From positions 331,336-395,335 of the forward strand of contig WGMK01000010.1 in assembly GCA_016125095.1 (NCBI GenBank): a DNA stretch of 64,000 bases. The letters are read 5' to 3'. Below the pieces are notes generated by a model. The model saw only the letters and a list, made by a program, of their open reading frames with translations. It had not been told where the DNA came from and made no database searches. The position numbers were made by a program, and so were the translations under genes. The DNA is from Candidatus Hydrogenedens sp. Its GTDB lineage: Bacteria > Hydrogenedentota > Hydrogenedentia > Hydrogenedentales > JAEUWI01. Of the stretch, positions 2,590 to 38,299 are shown piece after piece. Positions within the stretch are counted from its first letter, which is position 1. Each line of letters begins with the position of its first letter.

Positions 2590-5500
2590 ATGAAGCATTC
2601 CATGCGCGCGGAACTGCGACGGGATATCATGCCCGATTCACGTGCGCGCAGCTTCGTAGTCCTCGGCGTGATGCTCTTCCTTTTCGCGTCGTGTGTCGGC
2701 CAGGCGCAGGATTTTCCGAATGTCGCCCGCACGGCCGGCGAACTGCTGGCCGGCCCCATCGCGCCGGAGCAGGGCCGCACCGCGATTGTGGGCTGGCACG
2801 GCGGCCGCATCGTCTCGGTGCCCGAAGCGCCGGGCAGCCAGCCGGGCGCCGATTTGAATATGCGCGTGGTCAGCCTCGAGAACCTCGACACCACGGGCCC
2901 GGAGGTTACCGTCGTTCCGGCGCACGCCTCCGGCTTTCATGCGCATGGCTATTTTCAGTCGGGGCCCTACATGTACGTGGGGCCGCATTGCCTGGGCGAT
3001 GCGCTCGATACCTGCAACGGCACCTATCCGCACGATGTCTGGGGCAATGCCTTCCGCATCGGTGGCGCAGGCACGGCCATTGGCGATTCGCAGCTCCGCC
3101 GCGCCGACCTCGATGGCGAGACCGGGCTGCTGCTGGGCAGCGTGCAGCGCGCGGGCGCGCAATCGCCCTGGGGGCTCAACGATTTCTGGACCTACAACAC
3201 CATCGGCGGCGACATGTTTCTGGCCGTGCGCCGCAATAACGACTGGGTGTACGACTGGGCCAACGGCGGAGAACCCATCGGCCCGGCGATCAAGGCGCAG
3301 TGGGACCATCTCGGCCTGACCGGCGTCACCGGCTTTCCCTTCATCATGGGCAACATTCTCCTGGTGGCATCCGACCAGGCGGGCAGCGGCGTGGCGAGCT
3401 ACGACATCTCCGACCTGTCGAATCCCATCCTGCTCGACGTACTGAAGGAGGGGAATCCCGGCGGCTATTGGCCCGAGATTTACAGCCACTACATCTTCTT
3501 TCCGCGGCGCGATGGCGAGGGCGGCGTGGGCAGCCAAGCCGGCTACATGGTCGTCGATTTCGAGGATCCCACCGACCTGAAGATCGTCGCGAACCGCAAC
3601 CTGCAAGGGTCGAATCAATACGTCACCTTTCAGGACGAGTTCGCATTCATGAATCGCTACAAGATCGACATGCGGAACTTCGATGTGGCGCTCGAACTGG
3701 CGACGGTGCCGGGCGTAATTGATGCCAGCCAGTTTTCGCTGCCGGTGGGGAATCTCGTGGTGACGGGCGGCTACGGCAGCGATGGTCCCGGACTCGCGGT
3801 GTGGGCGCATCAGGATGCTCCCGATACGCGCGGGCCGTATGTGGCCTATCACGTGCCCGTGCCGGACCAGGCGAACTATCCGCTCGAATGCCCGATCACG
3901 CTCTCCATTCCGGAATCGCTGCGGACGGAAACGATCGTGGATGGCACATCGCTCATTCTGCGGCCGGTGGGGGGCGCCGCAGTGCCCACGTGGCATGCCT
4001 TCAGTCAGGGCAAGCTGTTGACCGTGACGCCGCATGAGCCGCTGCTGCCGGACACCACCTACGAGTTTCTGCTGACCAGTGTCATCGAGGATGCTGCGGG
4101 CAATCCTTTCGAGGCCTATACCTTCCGCTTCTCGACCGGTAGCGCATTGAGCGGCGGCAACCAGCCGCCGGTGGTGGATATGGTGACCTTCAATCCGGCA
4201 GTGCCCGCACCGGGCGTGTCGGTTGCGGTATCGTGGAGCGGCCATGATCCCGATACCGACCCCATCGAGTTCCGCGTTGACTATGGCGATGGCACGGCGC
4301 TGTCGGCGTGGGGTGCGGCGACTACCGGGAACCACGTCTATGCGGAGGCCGGTCACTACCAGTTCACCGTGCAGATTCGCGACGACCAGGGTTCCGTGTC
4401 GGCCCTTTCGCGCAAGGTAACGGTGATCGATGCACCGACCGAAACGAACGCCACGGCCAGCGGGCCGCTCGCGCTGAACGGCACGGCAGGGCGGCTGTAC
4501 GTTGCGAACCCCGACAACCAGAGCGTGACCTGCATCGACACCAGCACGAACGCCGTGTTGTGGGAAGCGCCCGCCGGGAAACACCCCATGAGTGTCGGCA
4601 TCGCGGCGGATGGCACGGTGTGGTTGGCCTGCCGCGACTCGGACAACCTCGTGCTGCTGAACCCTGCTACCGGCGCCGTCGAAGCGACCATAGCGCTCGA
4701 TTACGGCGCGGCGCCGGTCGCCATTGCGCCCACGCCGGACGGAACCGCGATGCTGGTGAGCCTCGACGGAGAAGGTGCAATCGCGCGCTTCAACACAGCG
4801 ACCCACGCGCAGACCGGGATGCTGGCCGTCGGGCCGTCGCCGCGTGCGATCGCCATCACGCACGACGGCTCCCGCGCGCTGGTCACCCGGTTCATATCAG
4901 GGCCGCATTCGGGATCGGTCTACGACGTCGCGCTTGCCGGCAGCATGAGCCTGACCCGCACGATCATCCTCGCGCGCGATCACTCAGTCGACAGCTCGGC
5001 GTCGGGGCGCGGTGTGCCGAATTACCTGGCCGGCATCCGCATTTCGCCCGATGGCGCGCACGCGTGGGTGGTGGGCAAGAAGGACAACACGACGCGCGGA
5101 AACTTCTTCAGTCCGGACATGACGCCCGGGCAGGACAGCACCGTGCGCGCCGTGCTGATGTTGATCGACCTCGGCACCAACGCCGAGGACCTGGCGCTCC
5201 GCCTCGACATCGACAACAGCGAATCGCCCAGCGCCGTCGCCTTCAGTCCGCTCGGGGACTACGCCCTGATTTCACTCCAGGGCAACAACCAGATCGGCAT
5301 CATCGACGTGCTCGACCTGCTCCGCGACGACACGCCCGGCACGCTGCAAGGGCGGTGGTCGACGGGCCTGGCGCCGCAAGGCGTGCTGGTCGATCCGGCG
5401 TCGCTGGCGGTCTATTCGAAGGACTTCATGGGCCGCAGCGTGACCCGGCTCGACGCTTCGGGCTTCTTCAACGCGGGCGCACTCAATGTGCCGTCGGCCG

Positions 5501-7440
5501 CCATCGCTACGGTAGGCAGCGAGCGCCTGCACCCGCAGGTGCTGCAGGGCAAGCGGATTTTCTACAACGCCTCCGACACGCGCATGAGCGCCGAGGGCTA
5601 CATCAGCTGCGCTACGTGCCACATCGACGGCAGCCACGACGGCCGCACCTGGGACTTCACCAACCGCGGCGAGGGCTTCCGCAATACGACCGATCTGCGC
5701 GGCCGAGCGGGCATGGGCCACGGCAATGTGCACTGGACCGCGAACTTCGATGAGATACAGGACTTTGAGAACGACATCCGCGGGTTCTTTGGCGGCTCGG
5801 GATTCCTGACCGACGGACAGTTCGCTTCCACGAGCAGTTCGCTGGGCTCGCCCAAGTCCGGGCTGAACGCCGACCTCGACGCGCTCGCGGCGTATGTGAC
5901 TTCACTGGGTACGGCCTCGCTGCCGCGCAATCCCGAGCGTGATCCGTTGGGAGCCTTGAGCGAGGCGGCGGTGCGGGGCGCGGCGGTATTCACCGCCCAG
6001 GGCTGCGCTGTTTGCCACATCCCCGAGGACGGCTACACCGATCGCCAGATGCACGACGTCGGCACGCTGCGCGCCTCGTCGGGACAGCGGCTGGGCGGTC
6101 CGTTAACCGCGATCGATACGCCGACGCTGCTGGGCCTGCAGGCCTCGGCCCCCTACTTCCACAACGGCACCGCCGCGACGATCGAGGAAGTGTTCACGAC
6201 GACCGGCGGGCGGCTGGTGCAAGCCGAGGACGCCGTGCTGGGCGGCGGCGCGTATGCGGAAGACATTCCGTGGTTCGCCATGAAAGAGTGGCATGGCGGG
6301 GAATTTGTGACCGTCGAAGCGGGGCAGTCGATCACCTTTGACGATGTGGTGTCCACGCAGGCCGGGGCGGGCTATGCCGAACTGCGCTACAGCGCGCGGT
6401 ACAACCAGCTGACGCTCGGCGTGTCAGTCAATGGCGGGGCCGTGCAGAACTACCTCGTCGCCATGACGCCGAACGAGCCGAGCTATGCGCCGACCGAATG
6501 GCGCGAACTCCGGGTGCCGATCACCTATCAGGCGGGGACGAATACCATCGTGCTCAGCAAGATATCCGGCGGGCAGCTGGCCTTCGACGATGTGATGTTC
6601 TCGACTCCCGACGACGCCGTGAATGCGGCCGCGCATTTCCGTGTGCTTGCGCCGGGCGATCTGGCCGACCTGACCGCGTACGTCGGTTCGTTGGATGGCT
6701 CCGACGCGCCCGGGGGACAGGTGGAAGTGCGGCGCGGCGTCGTTATCGCGCCGGGCAGCACCGACCATGCCACGGTGGCCGTCGGCGGAGCGGACACGCT
6801 GACCTATACCGTTCACAACACCGGCGCGGGTCCGCTCGATCTGGGCGCGTTCGCCCTCGTATCTGATCCCGCCGGCGCATTGGTCGTATCGCAACAGCCC
6901 GCGCCGCAGGTGGCACCCGGCGCATCCACCACGCTGGTCGTGACGGTGCAGCTACCGGGGACCAGCGCGCAGGCCGATTTCCATGGCTGGACCAGCGACC
7001 CGGGAGCCGAGTCGCTGTCGTGGTCGGTCACCGCCTTGGAAGAGGGCGCGTGCCTTGGGGAATGCCTGACGGTCGATGCCGTGGGTGCGACGCAGTACCT
7101 CCGCGAAGTGGGGGATTCGGTGACCTTCCGTGTGCAGGCGGCGGGTGATGCGCCGCTGCTCTATCAGTGGTACCGCAATCTCTCCGGCAAGGCCCTGCTC
7201 GAACTCGATGCGACCGATGCGACACTCACCTTGACCGACCTGCAGATCGCCGCCAGCGGCGAGTATTTCTGCGTGGTCGAGGATGCCAACGAGATGGTGC
7301 AGGGCCCGTCGTTCACGCTGACGGTCGTGGCGGAATTGCCGGCGGCAGGGAGCGCGGGCTTGTTGGTTATGGCGGCTTTGCTGGGCCTTGCCGGTACGAT
7401 TCTGATCCGGAGTAATCGCGTCCGTCGATGCGGGCTCTAG
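2590..7440 (+). CDS. Giant secreted multidomain protein: beta-propeller region, Ig-like/PKD domains, YVTN beta-propeller repeats, di-haem cytochrome c peroxidase (CCP/MauG-type) domain with two CxxCH, Ig I-set domain, C-terminal PEP-CTERM-like anchor
   Basis: ORF frame 2413..7440; ATG at 2590 (or 2629) precedes signal peptide MPDSRARSFVVLGVMLFLFASCVGQAQ. PKD-like segment (VDYGDGT...GNHVYAEAGHYQFTVQIRDDQG). YVTN repeats (LYVANPDNQSVTCIDTSTNAV...). CCP signature CATCHIDGSH...GCAVCHIPEDGY...HNGTAATIEEVF. Ends ...ELPAAGSAGLLVMAALLGLAGTILIRSNRVRRCGL. Confidence 0.7.
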   Translation: MKHSMRAELRRDIMPDSRARSFVVLGVMLFLFASCVGQAQDFPNVARTAGELLAGPIAPEQGRTAIVGWHGGRIVSVPEAPGSQPGADLNMRVVSLENLDTTGPEVTVVPAHASGFHAHGYFQSGPYMYVGPHCLGDALDTCNGTYPHDVWGNAFRIGGAGTAIGDSQLRRADLDGETGLLLGSVQRAGAQSPWGLNDFWTYNTIGGDMFLAVRRNNDWVYDWANGGEPIGPAIKAQWDHLGLTGVTGFPFIMGNILLVASDQAGSGVASYDISDLSNPILLDVLKEGNPGGYWPEIYSHYIFFPRRDGEGGVGSQAGYMVVDFEDPTDLKIVANRNLQGSNQYVTFQDEFAFMNRYKIDMRNFDVALELATVPGVIDASQFSLPVGNLVVTGGYGSDGPGLAVWAHQDAPDTRGPYVAYHVPVPDQANYPLECPITLSIPESLRTETIVDGTSLILRPVGGAAVPTWHAFSQGKLLTVTPHEPLLPDTTYEFLLTSVIEDAAGNPFEAYTFRFSTGSALSGGNQPPVVDMVTFNPAVPAPGVSVAVSWSGHDPDTDPIEFRVDYGDGTALSAWGAATTGNHVYAEAGHYQFTVQIRDDQGSVSALSRKVTVIDAPTETNATASGPLALNGTAGRLYVANPDNQSVTCIDTSTNAVLWEAPAGKHPMSVGIAADGTVWLACRDSDNLVLLNPATGAVEATIALDYGAAPVAIAPTPDGTAMLVSLDGEGAIARFNTATHAQTGMLAVGPSPRAIAITHDGSRALVTRFISGPHSGSVYDVALAGSMSLTRTIILARDHSVDSSASGRGVPNYLAGIRISPDGAHAWVVGKKDNTTRGNFFSPDMTPGQDSTVRAVLMLIDLGTNAEDLALRLDIDNSESPSAVAFSPLGDYALISLQGNNQIGIIDVLDLLRDDTPGTLQGRWSTGLAPQGVLVDPASLAVYSKDFMGRSVTRLDASGFFNAGALNVPSAAIATVGSERLHPQVLQGKRIFYNASDTRMSAEGYISCATCHIDGSHDGRTWDFTNRGEGFRNTTDLRGRAGMGHGNVHWTANFDEIQDFENDIRGFFGGSGFLTDGQFASTSSSLGSPKSGLNADLDALAAYVTSLGTASLPRNPERDPLGALSEAAVRGAAVFTAQGCAVCHIPEDGYTDRQMHDVGTLRASSGQRLGGPLTAIDTPTLLGLQASAPYFHNGTAATIEEVFTTTGGRLVQAEDAVLGGGAYAEDIPWFAMKEWHGGEFVTVEAGQSITFDDVVSTQAGAGYAELRYSARYNQLTLGVSVNGGAVQNYLVAMTPNEPSYAPTEWRELRVPITYQAGTNTIVLSKISGGQLAFDDVMFSTPDDAVNAAAHFRVLAPGDLADLTAYVGSLDGSDAPGGQVEVRRGVVIAPGSTDHATVAVGGADTLTYTVHNTGAGPLDLGAFALVSDPAGALVVSQQPAPQVAPGASTTLVVTVQLPGTSAQADFHGWTSDPGAESLSWSVTALEEGACLGECLTVDAVGATQYLREVGDSVTFRVQAAGDAPLLYQWYRNLSGKALLELDATDATLTLTDLQIAASGEYFCVVEDANEMVQGPSFTLTVVAELPAAGSAGLLVMAALLGLAGTILIRSNRVRRCGL

Positions 7441-7456
7441 CCACAGGTCCCGGGCT

Positions 7457-8641
7457 CTAGGTCCACTGCGGCACCTTCAGCCATTCGCCGCCTTCACCCG
7501 CCGATTCGTGGGCCAGGATGCCGGCCGCCGTCATGTTGAGCGCGAGGCCGATGTCGACGAGCGGCTGTCGATCTTCCAGAATCGCCGACACGAATTCGTC
7601 GCACAGGTAGCCATGCGAGCCGCCGTGTCCGCCCCCCTCTACTCCCGGCGGCAGCGGCGGCTTCTTGAGCAACGCCGGGTCGAACTCGGTGAGGCCCTCG
7701 AAGGTGATGCCCTGCATCGAACCCTGCTGTCCGCGGACCCGCCCGACTTCGCCGCCAAAGCCGGGAGTATCCCAACTGACCACCATGCGCGCCGTGCCAT
7801 CGGTCGTCTTGAGTTGGGCGACCTCGGTGCCGAAGGGGTTCACGTAGGTGTTGTTTTCCGGGCGGAGGTGGCCGACGATACTGGGCACGCCAACGCACGA
7901 AACTTCGGTGAAGCGGCCCCCGGTGACGCAGGAGAAATACCCGTTCGAATGGGTCGGATACCATTGCGGCGGCAGCCCGACGCGCCAGCCCTGGTAGGAA
8001 TCGATGGGCTCAAGCATGAGGTGGTAATACTCGCCCTCCGCATAGACGAGCTTGCCGAACACGCCGGCCTGATACAGCTTGCGCATGGCGTAACAGTCGT
8101 CTCGGAACGCGGTCGTCTCGAACATCATGTACTTGCGGCCGGAGCGCTTCACGGCGTCATACAGGGCCTCGGCGTCCTCCATCGATCCCCACACCGCCGG
8201 CACCGCACTGGCCACATGCTTGCCCCGCTCGAGCGCGGCGATACACAACCGCGCATGGCTCGGCGCGTCTGTCGCTACAAAGACGGCCTCGAGCGAATCG
8301 TCCGTCAGCATTTCTTCCATGGACGAATAGGTGGTTTCGCAGCGGCATATGCGCGCCAACTCGGCACAGCGGTCGGGAAACAGATCGCTGACCGCCGCCA
8401 CTTCGACGTTGGGATGATGCTGAAATCCGAAGGCCGCGCCGAACTTGCAGACGCCATAGCCCGCGATACCCACGCGGATCTTCCGGTCGCTGATGGGCGA
8501 CCATACGGCCCCGGCATCGGTGTTGCTCGAAGTCTCGTCGAAGCCCTGAATCGTGCTTTCTTCGGCGCCTGCCGCGCGGCTCAGCGCCGCCAGCAATGCA
8601 GTGCTTCCCAGAAATCCCCTTCGCGTAAGTCTGAATGGCAT
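7457..8641 (-). CDS. Tat-exported Gfo/Idh/MocA family oxidoreductase
   Basis: ORF frame runs to 9049, but internal ATG at 8641 gives MPFRLTRRGFLGSTALLAALSRAAGA (twin-arginine signal). Next comes KIRVGIAGYGVCKFGAAFGF (Rossmann fold) and a Gfo/Idh/MocA C-terminal domain. Periplasmic Gfo/Idh/MocA oxidoreductases are typical of PVC glycoside 3-oxidation systems. Confidence 0.7.
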   Translation of the reverse strand: MPFRLTRRGFLGSTALLAALSRAAGAEESTIQGFDETSSNTDAGAVWSPISDRKIRVGIAGYGVCKFGAAFGFQHHPNVEVAAVSDLFPDRCAELARICRCETTYSSMEEMLTDDSLEAVFVATDAPSHARLCIAALERGKHVASAVPAVWGSMEDAEALYDAVKRSGRKYMMFETTAFRDDCYAMRKLYQAGVFGKLVYAEGEYYHLMLEPIDSYQGWRVGLPPQWYPTHSNGYFSCVTGGRFTEVSCVGVPSIVGHLRPENNTYVNPFGTEVAQLKTTDGTARMVVSWDTPGFGGEVGRVRGQQGSMQGITFEGLTEFDPALLKKPPLPPGVEGGGHGGSHGYLCDEFVSAILEDRQPLVDIGLALNMTAAGILAHESAGEGGEWLKVPQWT

Positions 8642-8817
8642 AAGTTGCTTTCCTTGTGAAGACCCGTTGGCACACGGTAGGAAAGTCTGCTCGGACAATG
8701 CAATAAGAAAAGCGGTTGCGGCATGGAAACCGCGCGCGGCTGAACCGCGGTACGTGCGGGCTGCTGAACTTGTAACCGGGGGTAGGAAAAGATCGTGGCG
8801 GCACTCGGGGGCGCCTG

Positions 8818-9906
8818 CTACTCGAACAGAAAAGCCTCCGCCACCAGGCCCGGACCGAATCCGAGTGCGACGCACGGCCCCTCGGCGGCCCGGCTTATCA
8901 TTTCCTGAAGGATAAAGAGGACCGTGGGCGACGACATGTTCCCGAATTTGCGGAGGATATCCCAGGAAATCGCTAACTCCGCGCGACCAATTCCCAGGGT
9001 TTGCTGCACCGCACGCAGAATTGCGGGACCACCCGGGTGGACCGCCCAATGGCTCACCGTATCGACACTAAGATTCCTCTGTTCCAGCCACCCTTCCAAC
9101 CAGGGCCGCAAGTGCGTACGGATCAATTGCGGCACTTCATCTGAGAGCGTCATTACAAATCCATGATTCCGAATGCGCCACGACATCGCGTCCCGCGAAT
9201 CCGGCAGCACGCACGAGCCGGTGTGCGTGCCGCGCCAAACGCCGGCACGATCGGGAGCTCCGCCGACGACCATGGCTGCAGCGCCATCGGCGAAGAGTGC
9301 ATTCGCCACATTGCGCTCCGGATCCCAGCCATACTGAAAATGCAGACTGCAAAGCTCCACCGCCACCAGCAGAACGACGGCCGCAGGATCGGCATCGACA
9401 TAGCCCTTGGCCACGCGCATCCCGTTTATGGCGCCGTGGCACCCCATGAATCCAACCTGTGTCCGTTGTACCGTTGGCTTGAGGCCCAGAGTATCCATGA
9501 GGTGCACATCGACACCGGGGGACATAAAGCCACTGCAGGTGACAACAACGATGTGGGTGATTTCTGCCGGTTGCGCGCAAGCGGCGTTGAGCGCTTCCCG
9601 CGCGGCTTGTTCCGAGAGTCGCGGCGCCTCGATCTCATAGCGCCTCATCCGCTCTGCAACCGCCGGCCCGGTATCGTCCGCGTTCTTGGCATCCTCATAG
9701 AAGTCTATCGTGGGGCTATCGTTCGGCCCGGCGCCCAACAATACGCTGCGGCGCTGCTCCACCCCGGTAAGACGATATAATCGTTGAAGGTATTGTTCTT
9801 GCATCGCGTCGGCGTAGGCGAATTTCGCCGCCGACAACGCGGCTTGCTGCTGCGTTATTGAATGTTCCGGAATAGCAGTTCCCATTCCCAGTACAGCAAA
9901 GCTCAT
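8818..9906 (-). CDS. Type III polyketide synthase (chalcone/stilbene synthase family)
   Basis: Internal ATG at 9906 (MSFAVLGMGTAIPEH...). Catalytic-Cys context VVVTCSGFMSPGVD, His context HWAVHPGG, Asn context KFGNMSSPTVLFIL, C-terminal GFGPG. ~363 aa. Confidence 0.8.
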   Translation of the reverse strand: MSFAVLGMGTAIPEHSITQQQAALSAAKFAYADAMQEQYLQRLYRLTGVEQRRSVLLGAGPNDSPTIDFYEDAKNADDTGPAVAERMRRYEIEAPRLSEQAAREALNAACAQPAEITHIVVVTCSGFMSPGVDVHLMDTLGLKPTVQRTQVGFMGCHGAINGMRVAKGYVDADPAAVVLLVAVELCSLHFQYGWDPERNVANALFADGAAAMVVGGAPDRAGVWRGTHTGSCVLPDSRDAMSWRIRNHGFVMTLSDEVPQLIRTHLRPWLEGWLEQRNLSVDTVSHWAVHPGGPAILRAVQQTLGIGRAELAISWDILRKFGNMSSPTVLFILQEMISRAAEGPCVALGFGPGLVAEAFLFE

Positions 9907-9976
9907 GGGGCCTCCTTTTCTCGGTGCGGGCGGTCGCCAGCTCCACATCTGCCCGCTCTCGGGCGGGAAAATTGCG

Positions 9977-11128
9977 TCAAAATGCGGGAGTGTTGATGTA
10001 TCGGATAAGTGGTGTCGCCAGGCCCGGCTGCCAGCCCAACGCGCGCAGAAACATACGGACCGCGAGGGGATACCGGAGCAAGGTGGCCACCCCGCGGCAC
10101 ACCAATTGCCGCGAACCGACATGCCCGCGATAAACGTTGCGCCACTCTTGGAGCGGCAGGGGGACATCGTGCGATACCGCGTGTTCCACGAGCGGTGCTA
10201 CGGCGTATCCCGAGGTAAGCGCCCAGGCCATGCCTTCGCCGGTGAACGGCTCTATGTACCCGGCCGCGTCTCCCAGCACAAGCACGCGCTCTGCTCCTAG
10301 CACGGTGGCCCGCCGAGTCAGCGGCGGAGTGCCTTTCCATTTCGTGCTCGCTTCCACAGGTACAGGGGCGTACCCGGCGCTCATCAGAATCTTGTTCGCT
10401 GCATCGGCCGGCCCGTTGCACTCGCGCAGGAAACTTGGGTCAAAGGCGGCTGCCACGTCGATACGGCCTGCTTCAACCATCGCCGCGCCGACATAGCCGC
10501 CCACGGCAATCGCCATACGGATTACGCCAGGCTCTATCCGCACGGAACCCGCGGGCAACACTGTTCCTGCGCCTACGCGCGCGTCCGCCGCGATACGGGG
10601 TTCATGTCCCGCGCTGCGCAGGGTGCCGCCATGCAGGCCATCGGCCGCGAGCACCGTGCGCGCACGGACCGTTTTCTGGCCGTCGTCTGAATACAGCGTG
10701 ACGATACGGTGTCCGCCATCGACGTCTCCCAACACCGCCTTTGTACCGTCTACAAAACACCCGCCGGCGTCAATGACAGCTTCACTCATCAGGGTATCCA
10801 GCGCGGCGCGCGAAATGCTCAGCCCCGTCGGTACAGCGAGGCGGATTCTCTGATCCGTGGTCGCAAGTTCCAGCGCAGCCTGTGACACCGCGCCTGCCTG
10901 CACCACCGCGTCTCGCATGCCGAGCCGCATCAAAATATCAATGGCACGCTGATTCAGGCAGCCGCCGCATACCTTGTCGCGTGGAAAGCGTGCCCGCTCC
11001 ACAAGCAGAACGCGGAGATTCAATTGCGAAAGTCTGAGCGCTGCAGCAGTTCCCGCGAGACCTGCGCCGATAATCAGGCAGTCCCAAGGCTCGTCGTTGA
11101 GCAATTGGAAGTCGATGGCATTTTCCAT
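9977..11128 (-). CDS. FAD-dependent oxidoreductase, geranylgeranyl-reductase/flavin hydroxylase family
   Basis: N-terminal GxGxxG dinucleotide fold DCLIIGAGLAGTAAALRL and FPRDKVCGGCL motif typical of the geranylgeranyl reductase family. Lies immediately between the methyltransferase and type III PKS genes on the same strand. Confidence 0.7.
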   Translation of the reverse strand: MENAIDFQLLNDEPWDCLIIGAGLAGTAAALRLSQLNLRVLLVERARFPRDKVCGGCLNQRAIDILMRLGMRDAVVQAGAVSQAALELATTDQRIRLAVPTGLSISRAALDTLMSEAVIDAGGCFVDGTKAVLGDVDGGHRIVTLYSDDGQKTVRARTVLAADGLHGGTLRSAGHEPRIAADARVGAGTVLPAGSVRIEPGVIRMAIAVGGYVGAAMVEAGRIDVAAAFDPSFLRECNGPADAANKILMSAGYAPVPVEASTKWKGTPPLTRRATVLGAERVLVLGDAAGYIEPFTGEGMAWALTSGYAVAPLVEHAVSHDVPLPLQEWRNVYRGHVGSRQLVCRGVATLLRYPLAVRMFLRALGWQPGLATPLIRYINTPAF

Positions 11129-11132
11129 CCTG

Positions 11133-11897
11133 CTATTCCGTGCTCCGGCGCCAGTCGAGCATGAAGCGCTCGGGCCAGCGGCGGCCCAGTTGCGCCGTGT
11201 GCATGCCCACCGCGTTCGCCATCTGGCGGATTTCCTGCATCGTGAACGCAGAACGCGCCGACAACACGGCGTCCACGTGCACCACGTACGAGCGGCTCAC
11301 GATCGGCGGCACGAGCCGCGCGAGCCAAAGACCCGCCTTCGAACGTACCAAGTCATTGACCAATACTCCCCTCCGGGCCCGCTTAAACATTTCTCCCAGC
11401 AAGGCGGTGGCCTGCGCTTCCGTCAAGTGATGCAGAAACAGCGAGCAGAGAATCACGTCAAAGCCCTCGGGCAGGCCATTGGCCAAGACGTCCCGCTGCA
11501 TCCAAATCACCTTGACTCGCTTCGATTCCGCCTCGCGCGCGGCAAAGCGAAGCGCCTGGGCACTGATATCCAGCCCAGTTACTTCGATCGCTGCGTTTGC
11601 GCGTCTGGCGAGACGCGCCACCCAGATCGAGGTTCCACCTCCCCCGCACGCCACATCCAATACCCGTAACGGTCGTTCAGGCTTATGACCGCGTGCCATT
11701 TCCAAAAGCGGCCGCCGAAAACCAAGCGACGCAAGGCTCAAGAGGTTGATGCGCCCCAAGCCCGTCAGCGCGGCAAAGTGATCCGATTCGGCCAGCCCCG
11801 GCTCGTCCATCAATTCGGGATCGAGTACTCGTTCCGGTAGGGTGAATATCGTTCTCGCTTTGAGCAACGCCAGTAGCTCCGATCGTGTTTTGTTCAA
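11133..11897 (-). CDS. Class I SAM-dependent methyltransferase
   Basis: SAM-binding motif I VLDVACGGG and acidic motif LVND. TTG start at 11897 per the ORF track; the start is uncertain. First gene of a three-gene same-strand unit with the FAD oxidoreductase and type III PKS. Confidence 0.65.
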   Translation of the reverse strand: MNKTRSELLALLKARTIFTLPERVLDPELMDEPGLAESDHFAALTGLGRINLLSLASLGFRRPLLEMARGHKPERPLRVLDVACGGGGTSIWVARLARRANAAIEVTGLDISAQALRFAAREAESKRVKVIWMQRDVLANGLPEGFDVILCSLFLHHLTEAQATALLGEMFKRARRGVLVNDLVRSKAGLWLARLVPPIVSRSYVVHVDAVLSARSAFTMQEIRQMANAVGMHTAQLGRRWPERFMLDWRRSTE

Positions 11898-12259
11898 CTT
11901 ATAGTGGACAACACATCGTCAGCCTGATTAATTCTTGCGTCAGGAATTTTTTGTTGGGGGTGTTTGGTGGTGGATGAAGATGTCGACCCGCTCTGGCGAG
12001 GTATTGCCGCTGCGGAGACGCAAGCTGCTGCGGTGTGCGCCGATGCAAAAAGGCGGTGCGAAGCAACGTGGCGCACGGAACGTGCTTGGTAGCGACCGAA
12101 GGCAAGCAGGCATCTGAGGTTGGAGGCCCAGACCTGCGTGGGGTCTTCCGCTCTGAATTCCATTAAGCAGAAGAGCATCCGTTCTTTGCACGCCGCAAAG
12201 GGGGGCCCCTGAGGCCGTAAGCTTCAAAGAGAGCCTATGCCAAAGCGCAAAGAAAAAGG

Positions 12260-12346
12260 TGGTAGCGGCACTCGGGGTCGAACCGAGACGGGGTTGCCCC
12301 CACTGGATTTTGAGTCCAGCGCGTCTGCCAATTCCGCCATGCCGCC
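12260..12346 (-). tRNA. tRNA-Leu (anticodon CAA), class II with long variable arm, encoded CCA
   Basis: Manual fold of the reverse complement: acceptor GGCGGCA/TGCCGCT (G1-U72 wobble), U8, anticodon stem CTGGA/TCCAG with loop CTCAAAA (anticodon CAA), long variable arm TGGGGGCAACCCCGT, T-arm CTCGG-TTCGACC-CCGAG, discriminator A, CCA. Confidence 0.85.
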
Positions 12347-12430
12347 GCGATGGGAGCGGAAGTATAGCTTAGTAATCCCGAGGTTTCCAAGGTGTGGGAT
12401 GCTGCGGGTGCATCTGATGTGGATCGGGGC

Positions 12431-12472
12431 GGAAATAAAAGTGCCCCGTCTCGGGGAGGAGTCGAGACGGGG
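12431..12472 (-). terminator. Rho-independent terminator (10-bp GC-rich stem CCCCGTCTCG/CGAGACGGGG followed on the minus strand by CACUUUUAUUUCC)
   Basis: Seen directly in sequence. On the plus strand the same hairpin is followed by T runs (gattttttcgcttttt), so it may be bidirectional. Sits between the candidate sRNA/sORF locus and tRNA-Leu. Confidence 0.5.
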
Positions 12473-12542
12473 CGAAGCGAAGAAGGGATTTTTTCGCTTT
12501 TTGAGGCCACCGCGGCATAACGGGCCGCGGGACCTCTAAATT

Positions 12543-12729
12543 ATTTTTTCGGCGCCCGGTCGGCAAGGGCTCGGACGGGCTTGACCTGGTGTTCGGGCCG
12601 CCTCACCAGGAGAGGCGTTGGGCTTTTGCCTGGAGTCGAGTTGTGGCATAGGTCGCTTGGCGGGAGGGAGGCCGCGCAAGGAGTGTAGAAGGGATCCGAA
12701 CGGATTCGCCTTCCGGGCGCCGGAAAAAA
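12543..12729. ncRNA. Candidate ~187-nt structured RNA closed by a long-range 16-nt terminal helix (UUUUUUCGGCGCCCGG ... CCGGGCGCCGGAAAAAA); 6S-RNA-like size and architecture; strand undetermined
   Basis: Near-perfect inverted repeats ~170 nt apart enclose a GC-rich region with several local hairpins (e.g. CGCCTC-ACCAGGA-GAGGCG). No convincing ORF inside. The region lies in a ~1 kb gene-free gap. Confidence 0.3.
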
Positions 12730-12761
12730 CGGATTCAACTATCTTCAGCGGTCAGCGCGTG

Positions 12762-12944
12762 TCAGCGCGATCGGTACGTGTGGGCCAGGGCGGAGAGCTG
12801 CTCGAGAGAAAGCCCGGCGTGCCAGTTATTGCTCAGGCCGGCCGCGTGCGCTTCCGCGTTGTACGCGTACTGCGCCATCAGACGCGTTCCGGCGTCCTGG
12901 GGGGCGGGGCTAAGCATTACTGGGGTCGTCGTGCGGGCTTCCAT
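12762..12944 (-). CDS. Possible small protein (60 aa) MEARTTTPVMLSPAPQDAGTRLMAQYAYNAEAHAAGLSNNWHAGLSLEQLSALAHTYRSR
   Basis: ATG preceded by AAGGAGAGCAGAGG (SD-like, ~8 nt spacing). High GC3 consistent with the genome's coding bias. The longer 102-aa ORF-track frame was trimmed to the ATG with an RBS. No homolog recognised. Confidence 0.3.
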   Translation of the reverse strand: MEARTTTPVMLSPAPQDAGTRLMAQYAYNAEAHAAGLSNNWHAGLSLEQLSALAHTYRSR

Positions 12945-13381
12945 CCTCTGCTCTCCTTGGGGTTGGCGGCGGCTGCTTCCGGTCGGTCTTGCGTTGCGTC
13001 GGGCGGCGGCGCTGGGCGACGTGGGGTTCGCCCAGCGTCCGCACACCCAGGGGGGAGATTCACAACGCAATCACGATTGTCCTGAACGCAGCCTCCTCTT
13101 GTTTCGGGTTGCTTTTTCAACTGTGCTGTCGCTACCGCGCCAGCGACAGGCTAATAGCAGCGCCCGTGCCAACTTTGGAAAATTTGGGGAATTCCCAACA
13201 AAATGGAGGTTTTGGGCTCGCTGGTCGTGCCAACTTGGCACGGAACCGGCACAAAACAACCTACCGGCGGGTGTGCGAGATAGGCAACATTACCAAAATG
13301 TAGGATTGGTGGCTGCGTGCAGGGTTTGCATGGGCAGGCAGGGATCTCCCGACGGGGAGTCCATGCATACTTCAGGGGGGA

Positions 13382-13957
13382 CTAGAGCACCAAATCGTCG
13401 GGTTCGGACACGGGAATGGCCGCAAGCGTGGGCGGAAGGGATTCCGCGTCGTAGGTTTCCAGCGTGAGGGTGGCGAGGGGATGGAAGGGTACGTCGAATT
13501 CGGCCTGTCCGCCACTGCGATCGATCAGCGCGGCCACGGCAACGATGTCCGCGCCGCGGGCACGGAGGTGGTCGATGCTCTTCTTTACGGAGCCGCCCGT
13601 GGTGATGATGTCCTCGACGACGAGCACCCGCGTGCCGGGTTCGAGCCGGAAGCCGCGCTTGAGCGCCATCGTTCCGTCGGGCTCCTTCTCCGTGAAGGCG
13701 GCCCGGCAGCCGAGGTGCCGCGCGGTTTCGTAGGAAAGAATGATGCCGCCCGTGGCGGGACCAACGACCAGCTGGATCCCGGCATCCTGAAACGATTCGG
13801 CCATGGCCTTGCAGAGCGCTTCGGTCTGTTCGGGAAACTGCAGCACACGCGAGGCCTGCAGAAAGCGCGAGCCGTGCCGGCCGCTGGCATAAATAAAATG
13901 TCCGTTCAGCAGGGCGCCGGTCTGTTCGAAGAGCGCGAGTACTTGCTGGGTGTCCAT
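13382..13957 (-). CDS. pyrE: Orotate phosphoribosyltransferase
   Basis: PRPP-binding motif VLVVEDIITTGGS; overall length and sequence typical of PyrE. Confidence 0.85.
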   Translation of the reverse strand: MDTQQVLALFEQTGALLNGHFIYASGRHGSRFLQASRVLQFPEQTEALCKAMAESFQDAGIQLVVGPATGGIILSYETARHLGCRAAFTEKEPDGTMALKRGFRLEPGTRVLVVEDIITTGGSVKKSIDHLRARGADIVAVAALIDRSGGQAEFDVPFHPLATLTLETYDAESLPPTLAAIPVSEPDDLVL

Positions 13958-13997
13958 GGCAGGATATCCTTTAGCGAGGCATGTTCCGGAGACCGGC

Positions 13998-14687
13998 CTA
14001 GTTCAGTTCGTCTTGAATCAAATCCACGGCCTCGGCCGGGTTTTCGTGTCCGAGTATCGGCCGGCCTACCACGATGTAGTCGGCACCGGCGGCGCGGGCG
14101 TCGGCCGGGGTCATGATGCGCGCCTGGTCGTTGGCGGCCGCCCAGGCCGGACGGATGCCGGGCGTGACGATGAGCGCGTCGGGCCCGACGGCCTCGCGCA
14201 CGGCGGTAATCTCGAGCGGAGAGCAGACGATGCCGTGCGCGCCGGAATCGACGGCCAGACTAGCCAGACGCCGCACGGCCTGCTCGGGCGTTTCGGGCAT
14301 GCCGACTTCGCCGCGCAGGGCTGCTTCACTGATGCTGGTCAATACTGTCACCGCGAGGATACGCGTGTTCGTGCCCTCGGCCGCCTCGCGCGCGGCGGCA
14401 ATCATGGCGCGTCCGCCGCTGGCGTGGATGGTCAACAGCCCGGCATCCAGCGCGATGCTCGATTCCACGGCGTGCTTCACGGTGTTGGGAATGTCGTGGA
14501 ACTTGAGGTCGAGAAAGAGCTGCTTGCCGGCCTGACGCACCGCATGGGCGATATCGGGGCCGTAGCGCGTGTAGAGCTGCAGGCCCACCTTGAACCAGGC
14601 GCAGCGCCCGCAGCGTTCCACGGCGGCCAATGCCTCCTCGCGCGTGGGCACGTCGAGGGCGGTAATTAGTTCGGTCTGGCGGCTCAT
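13998..14687 (-). CDS. pyrF: Orotidine 5'-phosphate decarboxylase
   Basis: Real gene is the C-terminal 229 aa of the 755-aa ORF-track frame, with ATG at 14687 (MSRQTELITALDVP...). The FKVG...DLKFHDIPNT motif contains the catalytic Lys and DxKxxD. Overlaps the pyrD stop by 4 nt (ATGA). Confidence 0.85.
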   Translation of the reverse strand: MSRQTELITALDVPTREEALAAVERCGRCAWFKVGLQLYTRYGPDIAHAVRQAGKQLFLDLKFHDIPNTVKHAVESSIALDAGLLTIHASGGRAMIAAAREAAEGTNTRILAVTVLTSISEAALRGEVGMPETPEQAVRRLASLAVDSGAHGIVCSPLEITAVREAVGPDALIVTPGIRPAWAAANDQARIMTPADARAAGADYIVVGRPILGHENPAEAVDLIQDELN

Positions 14688-15745
14688 AGCGCGGCTCCCG
14701 TGGCTTCTTGGATAGTGGCGATGCCCTCGGCTTCGAGGCGTTCGAGCAGACCGGCGTTGATGTCGCGCACGAGCCCCGGCCCCTTGTAGATCATGCCCGT
14801 ATAGACCTGCACCAGCGATGCGCCGTGAACAATGCGGCGCCAGGCCTCGTCGGCACTGTCGATGCCGCCGACGCTGATCAGGGTCGTCTTCCCGTAGAGC
14901 TCTGCGGCAATGGCCTGAAACACGGCAAAGCTGCGCTCCGTCAGCACGCGTCCGCTCAGGCCGCCGAAGTCTTTCGCGCCTGGGCAGAGCGCGTAGTCCA
15001 CCGTCGTATTCGTCGCGATGATGCCCGCCGCGCCTGCGTCTACTGCCGCACGGCACAGGCCGACGATGGTGTCGGGCTCGGCATCGGGCGAAACTTTGAG
15101 CAATACCGGCGCCTGGGTCAGCGGCAGGCAGGCCCCGAAGACTTCCGCGATGAAGGCCTCGTTCAGCAGGCCGCGCAGCCCCGGCGTGTTCGGGCTGGAG
15201 ATGTTGATGACAAAGTAATCGCAGAGCCCGTCGAGCCCCTGAATCAGCTTGGTGTAGTCCGATACGGCGTCGGCCTCGGGCGTGTCTTTGTTCTTGCCCA
15301 GGTTGATGCCGATGGGTATGCCCGCCGGGTAGGTCCGCTGCAGGCGGGCGCGCACGGCATCGAGTCCGTCGTTGTTGAAGCCCATCGCGTTCTGCAGCGT
15401 CTCCTGCGCCGGATGGCGGTACACGCGCGGCTTCGGGTTGCCGGGCTGCGGGCGCGGGGTGACGGCGCCCAGCTCGGCGTGTCCGAATCCGAGCAGCGGC
15501 CAGGCGCGCACCAGCGTGGCGTTCTTGTCGTAGCCTGCCGCCAGCCCCACGGGGTTGGGAAACTGCAGGCCAAGGCAGTCCACGGCCAGCCTCGGATCGG
15601 CCAGGCAGAACTCCGAGCGCAGGATGGCCGGACCAAAGGGGGCGAGCGCCGCGGCGCGCAGGGCGGCGCTGGCGGCGGCGTGCGCCTGTTCGGGCTCCAA
15701 CTGGAATAGCGCGGGTTTGAGCAGCGGATACAGGAGGCGGTGCAT
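14684..15745 (-). CDS. pyrD: Dihydroorotate dehydrogenase (quinone), class 2
   Basis: MHRLLYPLLKPALFQL N-terminal extension typical of membrane-associated class 2 DHODH. FMN/substrate motifs GFNNDG, NISSPNTPGLR, GGI. Confidence 0.85.
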   Translation of the reverse strand: MHRLLYPLLKPALFQLEPEQAHAAASAALRAAALAPFGPAILRSEFCLADPRLAVDCLGLQFPNPVGLAAGYDKNATLVRAWPLLGFGHAELGAVTPRPQPGNPKPRVYRHPAQETLQNAMGFNNDGLDAVRARLQRTYPAGIPIGINLGKNKDTPEADAVSDYTKLIQGLDGLCDYFVINISSPNTPGLRGLLNEAFIAEVFGACLPLTQAPVLLKVSPDAEPDTIVGLCRAAVDAGAAGIIATNTTVDYALCPGAKDFGGLSGRVLTERSFAVFQAIAAELYGKTTLISVGGIDSADEAWRRIVHGASLVQVYTGMIYKGPGLVRDINAGLLERLEAEGIATIQEATGAAL

Positions 15746-15751
15746 GGGCCC

Positions 15752-16831
15752 CTACATGCGCGAGCGCTGCACGTGCTGGTTGCGCAGCAGCTCGAGACTC
15801 ACGCGCACGCGTTCGGCGAGCACCTCGCCGATGCCGTCCACTTCCACGAGGTCGTCCTTCGGGGCGCGCACAATCATCTGCAGGGTGCCGAAGCGCTGCA
15901 CGAGGTTTTCGATGATGGCGTTCGGCAGGCGGTGGGTGGCGGCGAGCACACGGTAGCCGCGCGGCGCGAGATAGGTATCCACCGCGCGGATGTTGCTGCC
16001 GAAGCCCAGCGCGTGGCTGATACTTTCCAGGTTCAGCAGGTCTTCCTGCGAAATCTGGCGGATCCGGTCCATCACCGTGTCCAGGTTCACGCCGGACTTC
16101 GTGCTGTAGTAATCCTTCACCACCAGCTGGCACTGCTCGATGGGCTGCATGAGTTCTTCCAGCTGCAGCTCGATCAGGCGGCCCTCGGTGCCGAGCTCGA
16201 CGATGATGGGCTCGATTTCCTTGGCGATGCGCACCACCATCTCGGTGCGCTGAATGGCCCGGCACACGTCGAAGATCGTGACGATGTCCTGGAACTCGCG
16301 CGTCGTCAGCTCGGTCATGGCCTGCTGCAGCACGGTCATGTACTTCTCGAGCGTCTGGATGGCCTGCATGCCCTTGTTCACCAGCGAGGGGATCTCGTCC
16401 ATCACGTGGCGGATTTCGTGCACATAGACGGTGACCGCGCTGCGGCGCTGCGAGACCGCGATGACCATGGCCTTGGCCTGGTTCGCGAGGCGCTGCGCGG
16501 TGCGGTGGCGGGTGCCGGTCTCTTCGGAATGGATGTTCGCGTCGGGCTTGAGGAAGCGGTTGGCGTAGAGGATGCGGTCGCCCTTGGGGGTGAGGATGAT
16601 GGCGCCGTCCATCTTGGCGAGTTCATACAGCAACTGCGGCGTTACGCGCTCGTCCAGCTGCACGCCGCCTTCCGAAAGGCTGGCGAGCTTCTTCATCGGC
16701 CCGATACAGATGAGTGCGCCGGTGCCGCTCTGCAGAATCGCGGAAATGCCCTCGCGTATGATCGTGCCGGGCGCGATCATCTGCAACGCCTCGCGGAAAG
16801 CCTCGTCGGTGGATTTCGTTTTCGCCGCCAC
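15752..16831 (-). CDS. disA: DNA integrity scanning protein DisA (diadenylate cyclase, c-di-AMP synthase)
   Basis: DAC-domain DGA and RHR motifs (KMDGAIILTP...GTRHRTAQRLA). C-terminal HhH region (VDGIGEVLAERV). Directly downstream of radA, as in the Bacillus radA-disA operon. Confidence 0.8.
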   Translation of the reverse strand: MAAKTKSTDEAFREALQMIAPGTIIREGISAILQSGTGALICIGPMKKLASLSEGGVQLDERVTPQLLYELAKMDGAIILTPKGDRILYANRFLKPDANIHSEETGTRHRTAQRLANQAKAMVIAVSQRRSAVTVYVHEIRHVMDEIPSLVNKGMQAIQTLEKYMTVLQQAMTELTTREFQDIVTIFDVCRAIQRTEMVVRIAKEIEPIIVELGTEGRLIELQLEELMQPIEQCQLVVKDYYSTKSGVNLDTVMDRIRQISQEDLLNLESISHALGFGSNIRAVDTYLAPRGYRVLAATHRLPNAIIENLVQRFGTLQMIVRAPKDDLVEVDGIGEVLAERVRVSLELLRNQHVQRSRM

Positions 16832-18196
16832 TTAGTACGCCTCCATGCCGGATTCCAGGGCGCGCTCCAGACTGTCCACCGCATGCGCGGTTTCGAGCAC
16901 CCCGCCCGCGTCGCGGGCGCACCCCTTGGGCAGTATACATTGTTTGAAGCCGAATTTCGCGGCCTCGGCCACCCGCTGCCGGGCCATGGACACGGAGCGT
17001 ATTTCGCCGGAAAGCCCGACCTCGCCGAAGGCGACCAGGTCAGAAAAGGCGGGGGATTCGCGGAAGCTCGACACCAGGGCCAGCGCGATGGCGAGGTCTG
17101 CGGCGGGTTCGTCCAGCCGCACGCCGCCGGCCACATTGACGAAGACATCGCGGTCGGAGAAGTGCAGCCCCGCGCGCTTTTCCAGCACGGCCAGCAACAG
17201 CGATACGCGGTTCTGGTTCACGCCGGTCACGGTGCGCCGGGGCGAGCCCGCGTGCGATTCACCCACTAGCGCCTGCACTTCCACCAGCAGGGGGCGGGTG
17301 CCCTCGATGCTGGGGAACACCACCGAGCCGCTGATGCCCTCGGGCCGCTCGTGCAGGAACAGGGCGCTGGGGTTGGGTACTTCGTGCAGGCCCGAGCCGC
17401 GCATTTCAAACACGCCGATCTCGTTGGTCGATCCGAAGCGGTTCTTCACCGCGCGGAGGATGCGGAGCGATTGCCGGCCCTCGCCCTCGAAATACAGCAC
17501 GGCATCGACCAGGTGCTCGAGCAGGCGCGGCCCGGCGATGGCCCCGTCCTTCGTGACATGGCCCACCAGCATGATGCCGACGTTCTGGCCCTTGGCCAGC
17601 CGCAGCAGCTCATTGGCGCATTCGCGCACCTGGCTGATGCTGCCCGGCACCGCGGGCACCTGGGGACTGTACACCGCCTGAATCGAATCGACCACGACGA
17701 GTCTGTAGTCGCCTTCGCGGATATGGCGGGCCACCGATTCGATATTCGTCTCGGTGAGCATCATGAGGTGGTCGTGCATGGCGCCAAGGCGCTCGGCGCG
17801 CAGCCGGGCCTGGCTGAAGGATTCTTCGCCGGAAACATAGAGCACCGGGCCATGCTGCGCGGCCAGCCGCTGGGAGACTTGCAGCATCATGGTGGACTTG
17901 CCGATGCCGGGGTCGCCGCCGATGAGGGTGAGCGAGCCGGGCACCAGGCCGCCCCCGAGCACTCGGTCGAATTCGTGGATGCTGGTGCGGATGCGCTCGG
18001 GCGGAGCGAGCGTGCCATCGGTAATCGGCACGGGCTTCGCATTGGACACAATGGCGGGCCGTTCGTGGGCGCCCGACTCCGCTTGCACGTCCTCTTCCAG
18101 CGTGTTCCACGATCCGCACGCGCCGCACTTGCCGCTCCACTTGGGGGCGATAGCGCCGCAATCGCTGCAGATGTATACCGTGGTGAGCTTGGCCAT
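16832..18196 (-). CDS. radA: DNA repair protein RadA/Sms
   Basis: ATG at 18196 (MAKLTTVYICSDCGAIAPKWSGKCGACGSW, zinc finger). Walker A GDPGIGKST. RadA-specific KNRFG motif (AVKNRFGSTNE). Lon-like C-terminal domain. Confidence 0.85.
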   Translation of the reverse strand: MAKLTTVYICSDCGAIAPKWSGKCGACGSWNTLEEDVQAESGAHERPAIVSNAKPVPITDGTLAPPERIRTSIHEFDRVLGGGLVPGSLTLIGGDPGIGKSTMMLQVSQRLAAQHGPVLYVSGEESFSQARLRAERLGAMHDHLMMLTETNIESVARHIREGDYRLVVVDSIQAVYSPQVPAVPGSISQVRECANELLRLAKGQNVGIMLVGHVTKDGAIAGPRLLEHLVDAVLYFEGEGRQSLRILRAVKNRFGSTNEIGVFEMRGSGLHEVPNPSALFLHERPEGISGSVVFPSIEGTRPLLVEVQALVGESHAGSPRRTVTGVNQNRVSLLLAVLEKRAGLHFSDRDVFVNVAGGVRLDEPAADLAIALALVSSFRESPAFSDLVAFGEVGLSGEIRSVSMARQRVAEAAKFGFKQCILPKGCARDAGGVLETAHAVDSLERALESGMEAY

Positions 18197-18335
18197 GAAC
18201 CCGATTCCTGTCCGGCCGAGCAGGGTAACAGAGCCGCGCGGATCCGGGCAACGGTACGCATGGTTCGGTGAGAATCGGGCAGCGTACATGCTATGCTCCT
18301 CCGCCTGTATCTACCCGCAACCGAAAGGCTGAACC

Positions 18336-36857: not shown

Positions 36858-36869
36858 GCTGCACCCCGC

Positions 36870-38297: not shown

Positions 38298-38299
38298 GT

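Follow-up and report, generated by a model that had tools for sequence, protein, structure and literature searches.

We have analyzed a 64,000-nucleotide stretch of DNA, hereafter the window, from a metagenome-assembled genome (MAG) of Candidatus Hydrogenedens sp., an uncultured member of the Hydrogenedentota. Three consecutive open reading frames (ORFs) on its minus strand, at positions 8818-11897, encode a methyltransferase (MT), a flavin adenine dinucleotide (FAD) enzyme, and a type III polyketide synthase (PKS). We consider this locus, with a probability of roughly 0.78, to be a hidABC-type (hierridin-like) alkylresorcinol operon. The cluster is already known and widespread; what is new is the host phylum, not the system. 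The predicted product is a C15-C17 alkylresorcinol that is methylated and probably also hydroxylated. The three genes are the following:

11133..11867, minus strand: hidA-like class-I S-adenosylmethionine (SAM)-dependent MT, 244 aa, exact match to NCBI MBI1318695.1, TTG start at 11867.
9977..11128, minus strand: hidB-like FAD-dependent oxidoreductase, 383 aa, Pfam FAD_binding_3 (67 bits).
8818..9906, minus strand: hidC-like type III PKS, predicted long-chain alkylresorcinol synthase, 362 aa, Chal_sti_synt_N and Chal_sti_synt_C.

Identity and Distribution of the Operon

The locus has the features by which a hidABC-type operon is recognized: a PKS with an intact catalytic triad, a class-I MT as the first gene, an FAD gene in the middle, and the corresponding gene order with short spacers. 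The enzyme identities given in an earlier annotation of this DNA, made from the sequence alone (hereafter the initial annotation), are borne out by Pfam, by the curated family models, and by synteny. Its general assignment to a type III PKS phenolic-lipid pathway with MT and flavoprotein tailoring, chemically analogous to srs, also holds (PMC10896814). However, the closest system is not srs, ars, or bps, as had been proposed, because it is the cyanobacterial hidABC cluster and the planctomycete operon that carry exactly the MT > FAD > PKS order (PMC6836626, PMC8086630, PMC10896814). The gene order indeed differs from that of srs, but neither this order nor the type of FAD enzyme is unusual, both being the norm for the widespread cluster described in those studies.

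In the hidABC cluster of Cyanobium sp. LEGE 06113, recombinant HidA methylates 5-pentadecylresorcinol in vitro, and for HidB a hydroxylation of the ring, leading to hierridin B, has been proposed (Costa et al. 2019, as cited in PMC6836626). According to that account, hidB is the sole oxidoreductase gene of the cluster, and the formation of hierridin B needs one ring hydroxylation (PMC6836626). In cyanobacteria, 47 hierridin-like clusters have been reported, mostly arranged as hidA > hidB > hidC (Larsen et al. 2021, PMC8086630). In planctomycetes, 58 of 96 type III PKS genes end a methyltransferase-oxidoreductase-PKS operon, mtr-fdo-t3pks, in 58 type strains (Milke et al. 2024, PMC10896814). 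In Corynebacterium glutamicum, pentadecyl- and heptadecylresorcinols (C15/C17 5-alkylresorcinols) were formed by the enzymes from Gimesia maris, Rhodopirellula baltica, and Stieleria maiorica (PMC10896814). When the G. maris MT and oxidoreductase are added, one extra methyl group appears, apparently on carbon; what the oxidoreductase does "remains to be elucidated" (PMC10896814).

An alignment of 27 flavoenzyme homologues was used as the query in a scan of one genome per species. Relatives of the flavoenzyme were found in at least 584 stretches of these species-representative genomes, and the best 80 were kept. The loci were thus retrieved through the FAD protein alone, and the three window proteins were then located in them by tblastn. 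The order MT > FAD > PKS, with the genes adjacent and on the same strand, is found in 70 of the 80 loci. In most of the 10 exceptions, a contig end truncates the locus or the PKS is displaced. The MT directly upstream of the FAD gene is 35-50% identical to that of the window in 78 of the 80. The adjacency of the three genes is far beyond chance. In a clustering of all ORFs (100 aa or longer) of the window and the 80 loci, no conserved family emerges besides the MT, the FAD enzyme, and the PKS; the next cluster of real ORFs occurs in only 8 loci, and the other large clusters are antisense shadow ORFs. The flanking genes are likewise not conserved in planctomycetes (PMC10896814).

According to the record labels, from which the taxonomy is taken, the 80 loci include 52 from Planctomycetota, 6 each from Hydrogenedentota and Gemmatimonadota, 4 from Cyanobacteriota, 2 each from Acidobacteriota and Halomonadaceae, and one each from Elusimicrobiota, Melainabacteria, and Sumerlaeota, together with a few MAGs whose labels are doubtful. 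By these labels, the three-gene module is present in at least nine phyla, a wider range than the planctomycete/cyanobacterium one considered in the literature. Beyond these genomes, a metagenomic protein collection holds more than 2,400 flavoenzyme homologues at E < 1e-10, the closest being 66-70% identical to the window protein.

All three proteins show full-length homology to their counterparts in the characterized types of operon. In four picocyanobacterial (Cyanobium/Synechococcus) hid-like loci (L044, L051, L064, and L079), the first gene encodes an MT that is 42-45% identical to that of the window, the middle gene is 39-41% identical over flavoenzyme residues 1-383, and the PKS is 45-48% identical. 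In two Gimesia loci (L032 and L070), the corresponding values are 43-45% for the MT, 40% for the FAD enzyme, and 50-51% for the PKS.

Among the sampled operons, the nearest one belongs to another Hydrogenedentota MAG, with 45.5% identity over the three concatenated proteins, but planctomycete, Sumerlaeota, Gemmatimonadota, and Elusimicrobiota operons lie within one or two points of this value, and the identity of operons within a phylum is barely above that between phyla. The window operon forms a long branch that falls within no sampled clade. Its neighbor-joining placement is not meaningful. Across the loci, a positive correlation exists between the pairwise identities of the three proteins (Spearman 0.21-0.42), in keeping with a module that moves as a unit. 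So wide a range of hosts is at odds with a simple exchange between planctomycetes and picocyanobacteria. The presence of the module in many phyla weakens this published view and argues for a general physiological role.

Several variants of the arrangement were also observed. A close metagenomic relative (L083) has the same MT > FAD > PKS arrangement. In two other metagenomic loci (L081, 662-1498, and L082, 183-1019; Logan SRR12358676/75), whose flavoenzyme is 66% identical to that of the window, a 278-aa membrane protein of the PF05875 "Ceramidase" family is located upstream of FAD > PKS in place of the MT, with a gap of 346 nt. A Gemmataceae MAG (L040, 3124-6092) has the order PKS > MT > FAD, which equals the hidC > hidA > hidB variant of some cyanobacteria. 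Three loci (L013, L017, and L041) contain MT-FAD pairs with no type III PKS within 5 kb, and one (L003) contains the flavoenzyme alone, the downstream genes being unrelated. The MT-FAD pair is therefore separable from the PKS.

A number of points weigh against the hidABC-type assignment or against parts of it. The products have been measured in orthologues (C15/C17 alkylresorcinols), none of which comes from any Hydrogenedentota, and the three concatenated window proteins are only 38-46% identical to every species-representative homologue, so that the chain length and the regiochemistry could differ. The comparison with hid is made through other picocyanobacterial hid-like loci, the LEGE 06113 cluster being known from its description. 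The best solved relative of the PKS, PKS18, makes alkylpyrones. As to the flavoenzyme, the Asp of the DG motif, which classical NAD(P)H-dependent hydroxylases use, is conserved in only 59% of 81 homologues (the window protein has D163-G164), which hints at a reductant or mechanism of a non-classical kind. Moreover, no hydroxylated product was seen when the flavoenzyme of G. maris was co-expressed (PMC10896814).

Proposed Pathway

On the basis of orthology to enzymes with measured products, the pathway would start with the PKS loading a fatty acyl thioester with a long chain (about C14-C18), supplied by primary metabolism, onto its Cys156-His290-Asn323 active site. Addition of three malonyl-CoA units, followed by C2-C7 aldol condensation and decarboxylation of the tetraketide, would then yield a 5-alkylresorcinol. 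The class-I MT is expected to methylate the resorcinol ring, by analogy with HidA, which acts on oxygen in vitro, and with the Gimesia maris enzyme, which possibly acts on carbon. Finally, the HidB-like flavoenzyme would most probably introduce a hydroxyl group at ring position C4, which is para to one of the oxygen substituents. A hierridin-type methoxy-alkylphenol or alkyl-hydroquinone would result, and this could be oxidized further to an alkylquinone. We infer this last step solely from the structure of hierridin B and the fact that the cluster contains no other oxidoreductase.

The MT itself matches the Pfam families Methyltransf_25 (59.7 bits), Methyltransf_31, Methyltransf_12, and Methyltransf_11. 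Its score against the NCBIfam model PRK06202 is 188 bits, which is under the cutoff of 243. The G-x-G-x-G loop that binds SAM and an F-x-H-H-L motif are conserved in the protein and in at least 90% of 79 homologues.

Sequence Family of the Flavoenzyme

The best curated model of the flavoenzyme is TIGR02032 (GG-red-SF), the geranylgeranyl reductase superfamily, which is matched by all 27 aligned family members with a best E-value of 1.3e-39. The score of the window protein, 107 bits, is nevertheless under the cutoff of 158.8. The next-best models are MenJ, a reductase, and QhpG, an aromatic-ring monooxygenase, which are nearly tied at about 73 bits each; hydroxylase chemistry therefore has a precedent among the nearest curated relatives. 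The 27 family members all show this pattern of matches. The monooxygenases LodB and GoxB are also among the curated models that match. All equivalog scores are far below their cutoffs, namely 73.4 against 700 for MenJ, 52.6 against 343.3 for BchP-ChlP, and 53.9 against 580 for the DGGGPL reductase. The cutoff of the UbiH/UbiF/Coq6-type model TIGR01988 is not reached either (42.5 against 224.65). Among the profile matches in the PDB, 3oz2, the digeranylgeranylglycerophospholipid reductase of Thermoplasma (Ta0516), comes first with 84.7 bits.

The sequence FPRDKVCGGCL is read in the flavoenzyme, in agreement with the FPRDKxCGG motif quoted in the initial annotation. Within it, the pattern P49-R50-x-K52-V-C54-G-x-C57 is 96-100% conserved in the 81 homologues and forms a CxxC beside the predicted flavin site. 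C54 is conserved in all of them and aligns with the flavin-proximal Cys (R-C-G-E-G) of 3oz2, while C57 is present in 79 of the 81. A second motif, G-D-A-A-G-Y-x-E-P-F-T-G-E-G, is conserved throughout the same set.

Geranylgeranyl reductases of archaea carry, in their structures, a YxWxFP motif in the catalytic pocket. This motif is absent here, as "GYIWVFP" of 3oz2 aligns with "GYVGLVR" in the profile alignment. All 81 homologues have Y212 and G214, and where the motif has Trp, Phe, and Pro, they have G, R/M, and L/V. The description "geranylgeranyl-reductase type" is thus appropriate at the level of the superfamily but not at that of the family.

It is nevertheless conceivable, if rather unlikely, that the flavoenzyme is a reductase of the geranylgeranyl reductase/MenJ kind, which would saturate a double bond of the alkyl chain or reduce an alkylquinone, possibly via the CxxC, so that the end product would be a reduced one. 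The rank of TIGR02032 among the curated models, the additional matches to MenJ and BchP/ChlP, and the alignment of the invariant C54 with the flavin-proximal Cys of the top PDB match all point in this direction. The weak conservation of the DG-motif Asp and the result of the G. maris co-expression would also fit, and one paper words the HidA and HidB steps as "reduction and methylation" (PMC8086630). However, in addition to the score below the TIGR02032 cutoff, the enzyme has an invariant G-Y-V-G in place of the YxWxFP, and the residues after it vary and include no Trp, Phe, or Pro. The reductase ranks 32nd in the Foldseek search described below and is not favored over halogenases and aromatic hydroxylases. 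Furthermore, saturated chains that stem from fatty acids need no reduction. One ring hydroxylation is required for hierridin B, and the cluster has no oxidoreductase gene other than hidB (PMC6836626). The initial annotation was right in separating the enzyme from the UbiH-type hydroxylases, but the reduced product that it considered finds no positive support.

By the criteria of the families concerned, the flavoenzyme does not qualify as a bona fide geranylgeranyl reductase, as a halogenase, or as a UbiH-type hydroxylase. Ring hydroxylation is the most likely reaction, because hierridin B requires a hydroxylation for which hidB is the sole candidate gene and because the monooxygenases QhpG, LodB, and GoxB match the enzyme among the curated models. 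No study in the searchable literature demonstrates the reaction of a HidB-type flavoenzyme.

A further alternative, which we regard as speculative and unlikely, is that the HidB-like enzymes constitute a distinct flavoprotein family, characterized by the CxxC motif near the flavin, the lack of the reductase and halogenase motifs, and the weak DG. Their chemistry could perhaps be thiol-assisted, or consist in an oxygenation dependent on ferredoxin or reduced flavin, or in a quinone/hydroquinone redox reaction. In view of its many host phyla, the module might make a redox-active alkyl-methoxy-(hydro)quinone of the membrane with a physiological role, like that of the mycobacterial polyketide quinones, instead of an allelochemical that planctomycetes and cyanobacteria exchange.

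Type III Polyketide Synthase

The PKS matches both halves of the chalcone/stilbene synthase fold in Pfam, with 102.8 bits for PF00195 and 79.2 bits for PF02797. The Cys156/His290/Asn323 triad is invariant in 74 homologues and lies in the same motifs as the triad of PKS18. The top relatives in the PDB, aligned over residues 5-362 with 182-183 bits, are 7cb3, a mycobacterial chalcone-synthase-like protein that is the M. marinum homologue of PKS18, and PKS18 itself (1ted). An Ectocarpus PKS (4b0n) and Steely1 are also among the best. The initial annotation had raised the possibility that the enzyme might group with RppA/THNS, which are not lipid-forming; the best solved relatives are instead PKS18 and its M. 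marinum homologue, and THNS/RppA is named nowhere among the 60 best PDB matches.

An alternative is that the PKS forms a long-chain alpha-pyrone by lactonization of a tri- or tetraketide, in the manner of PKS18, BpsA, and ArsC, and that the MT then makes a methoxy-pyrone as in the Bacillus bpsAB pathway. That the two best solved relatives are both of the mycobacterial alkylpyrone type speaks for such a course. On the other hand, the PKSs of the syntenic operons, with 45-53% identity and mostly 285-386 bits (two outliers are at 38%), resemble the window PKS much more closely than PKS18 does. Moreover, every tested enzyme of the operon type (HidC, G. maris, R. baltica, as well as S. maiorica) gave alkylresorcinols (PMC10896814, PMC6836626). 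We therefore deem an alkylpyrone pathway improbable, and an alkylresorcinol is the product predicted for the window PKS by orthology to these enzymes. Alkylpyrone formation and a role in the cyst envelope, both of which had been suggested for this locus, find no support here, as the characterized orthologues make alkylresorcinols.

Structural Model of the Flavoenzyme

The AlphaFold2 model of the flavoenzyme, built with the family alignment, has a PHBH-type fold (predicted local distance difference test score 88.5, predicted template modeling score 0.91). In a Foldseek search with this model, the halogenases FasV (8zop), PltA (5dbj), and Bmp2 (5bva) come out on top, with E-values from 1.6e-22 on. 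The range from there to about 4e-20, however, also includes the Cytophaga protein 3nix, PqsL, 3-hydroxybenzoate 6-hydroxylase, PHBH, and the Thermoplasma geranylgeranyl reductase. Since these E-values are nearly equal, the candidate functions of the flavoenzyme are not separable by fold.

The ranking raises the question of whether the flavoenzyme might be a flavin-dependent halogenase, the "missing" enzyme for chlorinated products of the hierridin C type. The three halogenases are indeed the best structural matches (E about 1e-22), and the FPR of the halogenase motif FPRxxIGES is common to the flavoenzyme. However, the GES of this motif is replaced by CGxC, and the second halogenase motif, WxWxIP, is absent, "GWVWMIP" of CmlS being aligned with "GYVGLVR" in the profile alignment, i.e., with G-Y-V-G-L-V. 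The hydroxylases and the geranylgeranyl reductase score almost as well (E 1e-21 to 1e-20), and hierridin B would still need a hydroxylase. A halogenase function is therefore very improbable.

Gene Boundaries and Operon Structure

The three minus-strand ORFs of the initial annotation are confirmed, with small corrections at the starts of the PKS and MT genes. Further features of the operon are the following:

11133..11897, minus strand: maximal ORF of the MT, 254 aa, with a TTG at 11897 that is the end coordinate of the initial annotation.
9911..9916, minus strand: Shine-Dalgarno sequence AGGAGG, located 4 nt upstream of the ATG of the PKS and identified by direct reading of the DNA.
9907-9976, minus strand: FAD-PKS spacer of 70 nt, which contains the AGGAGG.
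11868..12259, minus strand: non-coding stretch between tRNA-Leu(CAA) and the MT start, presumed to hold the operon promoter.

We place the PKS start at the ATG at 9906 because it is preceded by the AGGAGG, because the homologues align from residue 1, and because the resulting 362-aa protein is identical to NCBI MBI1318693.1, "type III polyketide synthase [Candidatus Hydrogenedens sp.]". A longer PKS ORF of 449 aa (to 10167) was rejected, as it overlaps the FAD gene, has no homologue support, and differs from the annotated protein. The FAD enzyme is 100% identical to the NCBI entry "FAD-binding protein [Candidatus Hydrogenedens sp.]" from the same MAG. With these starts (PKS ATG at 9906, MT TTG at 11867), 4 nt separate the MT stop codon from the FAD ATG and 70 nt separate the FAD stop from the PKS ATG. 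The "short gaps or overlaps" reported initially are accordingly short gaps, while the overlaps vanish.

The three genes constitute a self-contained module and are probably transcribed together. The AGGAGG at 9916-9911 supports, in addition to the start at 9906, the translation of the PKS from a shared transcript. The number of terminator-like sites in the region is 5, compared to 5.4 expected from shuffled sequence. A promoter scan found no sigma-70-like site in 11868..12259 and nothing above chance within the operon. The GC content of the operon, 0.61-0.62, is slightly under the window average and inside the window range.

That the three genes are merely adjacent and not a functional unit is barely credible, as the 70-nt FAD-PKS spacer and the MT-FAD pairs of L013, L017, and L041 without an adjacent PKS are outweighed by the shared order and strand of the genes in 70 of the 80 loci, which represent about nine phyla and have non-conserved flanking genes, by gaps of only 4 and 70 nt with terminator-like sites not above chance, and by the correlated identities of the three proteins.

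Genomic Surroundings

The gene for tRNA-Leu(CAA) is located at 12260-12346 on the minus strand, about 390 nt upstream of the annotated MT start, and was the only match in an Rfam E-value scan of positions 7000-14000. The sole nearby promoter-like site, the sigma-70-like TTGGAA-18-TATACT at 12390-12361, lies just upstream of this tRNA gene, and a terminator-like hairpin is found near it at 12456-12444. Farther upstream, a housekeeping block at 13382-18289 (minus strand) comprises pyrE (orotate phosphoribosyltransferase), pyrF (OMP decarboxylase), pyrD (dihydroorotate dehydrogenase), the diadenylate cyclase DisA, and a RadA-like protein.

Downstream of the operon, there is a Gfo/Idh/MocA oxidoreductase, the N-terminus of which, MPFRLTRRGFLGS..., resembles a twin-arginine export signal on reading of the sequence. 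A 1675-aa ORF at 2413-7440 (plus strand) contains Big_5, PKD, and Ig-like domains and a CCP_MauG segment (di-haem cytochrome c peroxidase), and has the appearance of a large protein that is secreted or exposed at the surface. None of the genes flanking the operon is related to polyketide chemistry. At 33741-39053 (minus strand), a transporter of the AcrB-type RND family (885 bits) adjoins a membrane-fusion protein of the HlyD/CusB type, with no evident link to the PKS operon.

Three plus-strand ORFs, at 9163-9780, 10137-10496, and 10974-11669, are antisense to the three genes of the operon. We rejected them as genes and regard them as shadow ORFs of conserved high-GC coding sequence. Similar antisense ORFs recur in 63 related loci.

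Comparison with Known Systems

A search of the literature on type III PKSs in Hydrogenedentes returned nothing relevant. The geranylgeranyl reductase superfamily (TIGR02032, 3oz2) and the monooxygenases QhpG, LodB, and GoxB share with the flavoenzyme the GxGxxG, the flavin-proximal Cys, and the GDAAG..P.TG.G motif. The flavoenzyme differs from the geranylgeranyl reductases in the extra Cys that forms the CxxC, in the invariant Lys of PRxKVCGxC, and in the absence of YxWxFP, and its structure is equally near to halogenases and PHBH-type hydroxylases.

The methyltransferases of the SrsB and BpsB types are ICMT-like membrane proteins, whereas the MT of the window has a soluble class-I fold. PKS18 and the mycobacterial type III PKSs of polyketide-quinone synthesis (1ted and 7cb3; Anand et al. 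2015, as relayed in PMC10896814) have the same catalytic triad and use long-chain acyl starters. They differ from the window PKS in a much lower identity than that of the syntenic-operon PKSs, in that PKS18 makes pyrones, and in their accessory genes.

In the srsABC operon of Streptomyces griseus, an alkylresorcinol is converted to its methyl ether and then to an alkylquinone (Funabashi et al. 2008, as relayed in PMC10896814). The chemical logic is the same as that proposed here: an alkylresorcinol-forming PKS is combined with methylation and with flavoprotein oxidation to a lipid of the hydroquinone/quinone type. In srs, however, the PKS comes first (A-B-C, PKS > methyltransferase > hydroxylase), whereas it comes last in the window operon.

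The planctomycete mtr-fdo-t3pks operon has an architecture identical to that of the window operon, in a different phylum, and its G. maris MT appeared to methylate carbon. The hid clusters of cyanobacteria have the same three families in the same MT > FAD > PKS order on one strand, and the window proteins are 39-48% identical to those of L044, L051, L064, and L079. The differences are the host, here a heterotrophic and uncultured member of the Hydrogenedentota, the identity of about 40-48%, and the fact that no chlorination is implied.

The novelty that remains concerns the reaction of the flavoenzyme and the role of the module in hundreds of species. As a hidABC-type operon, the locus extends a known phenolic-lipid cluster to the uncultured phylum Hydrogenedentota, with a concrete prediction of its product.

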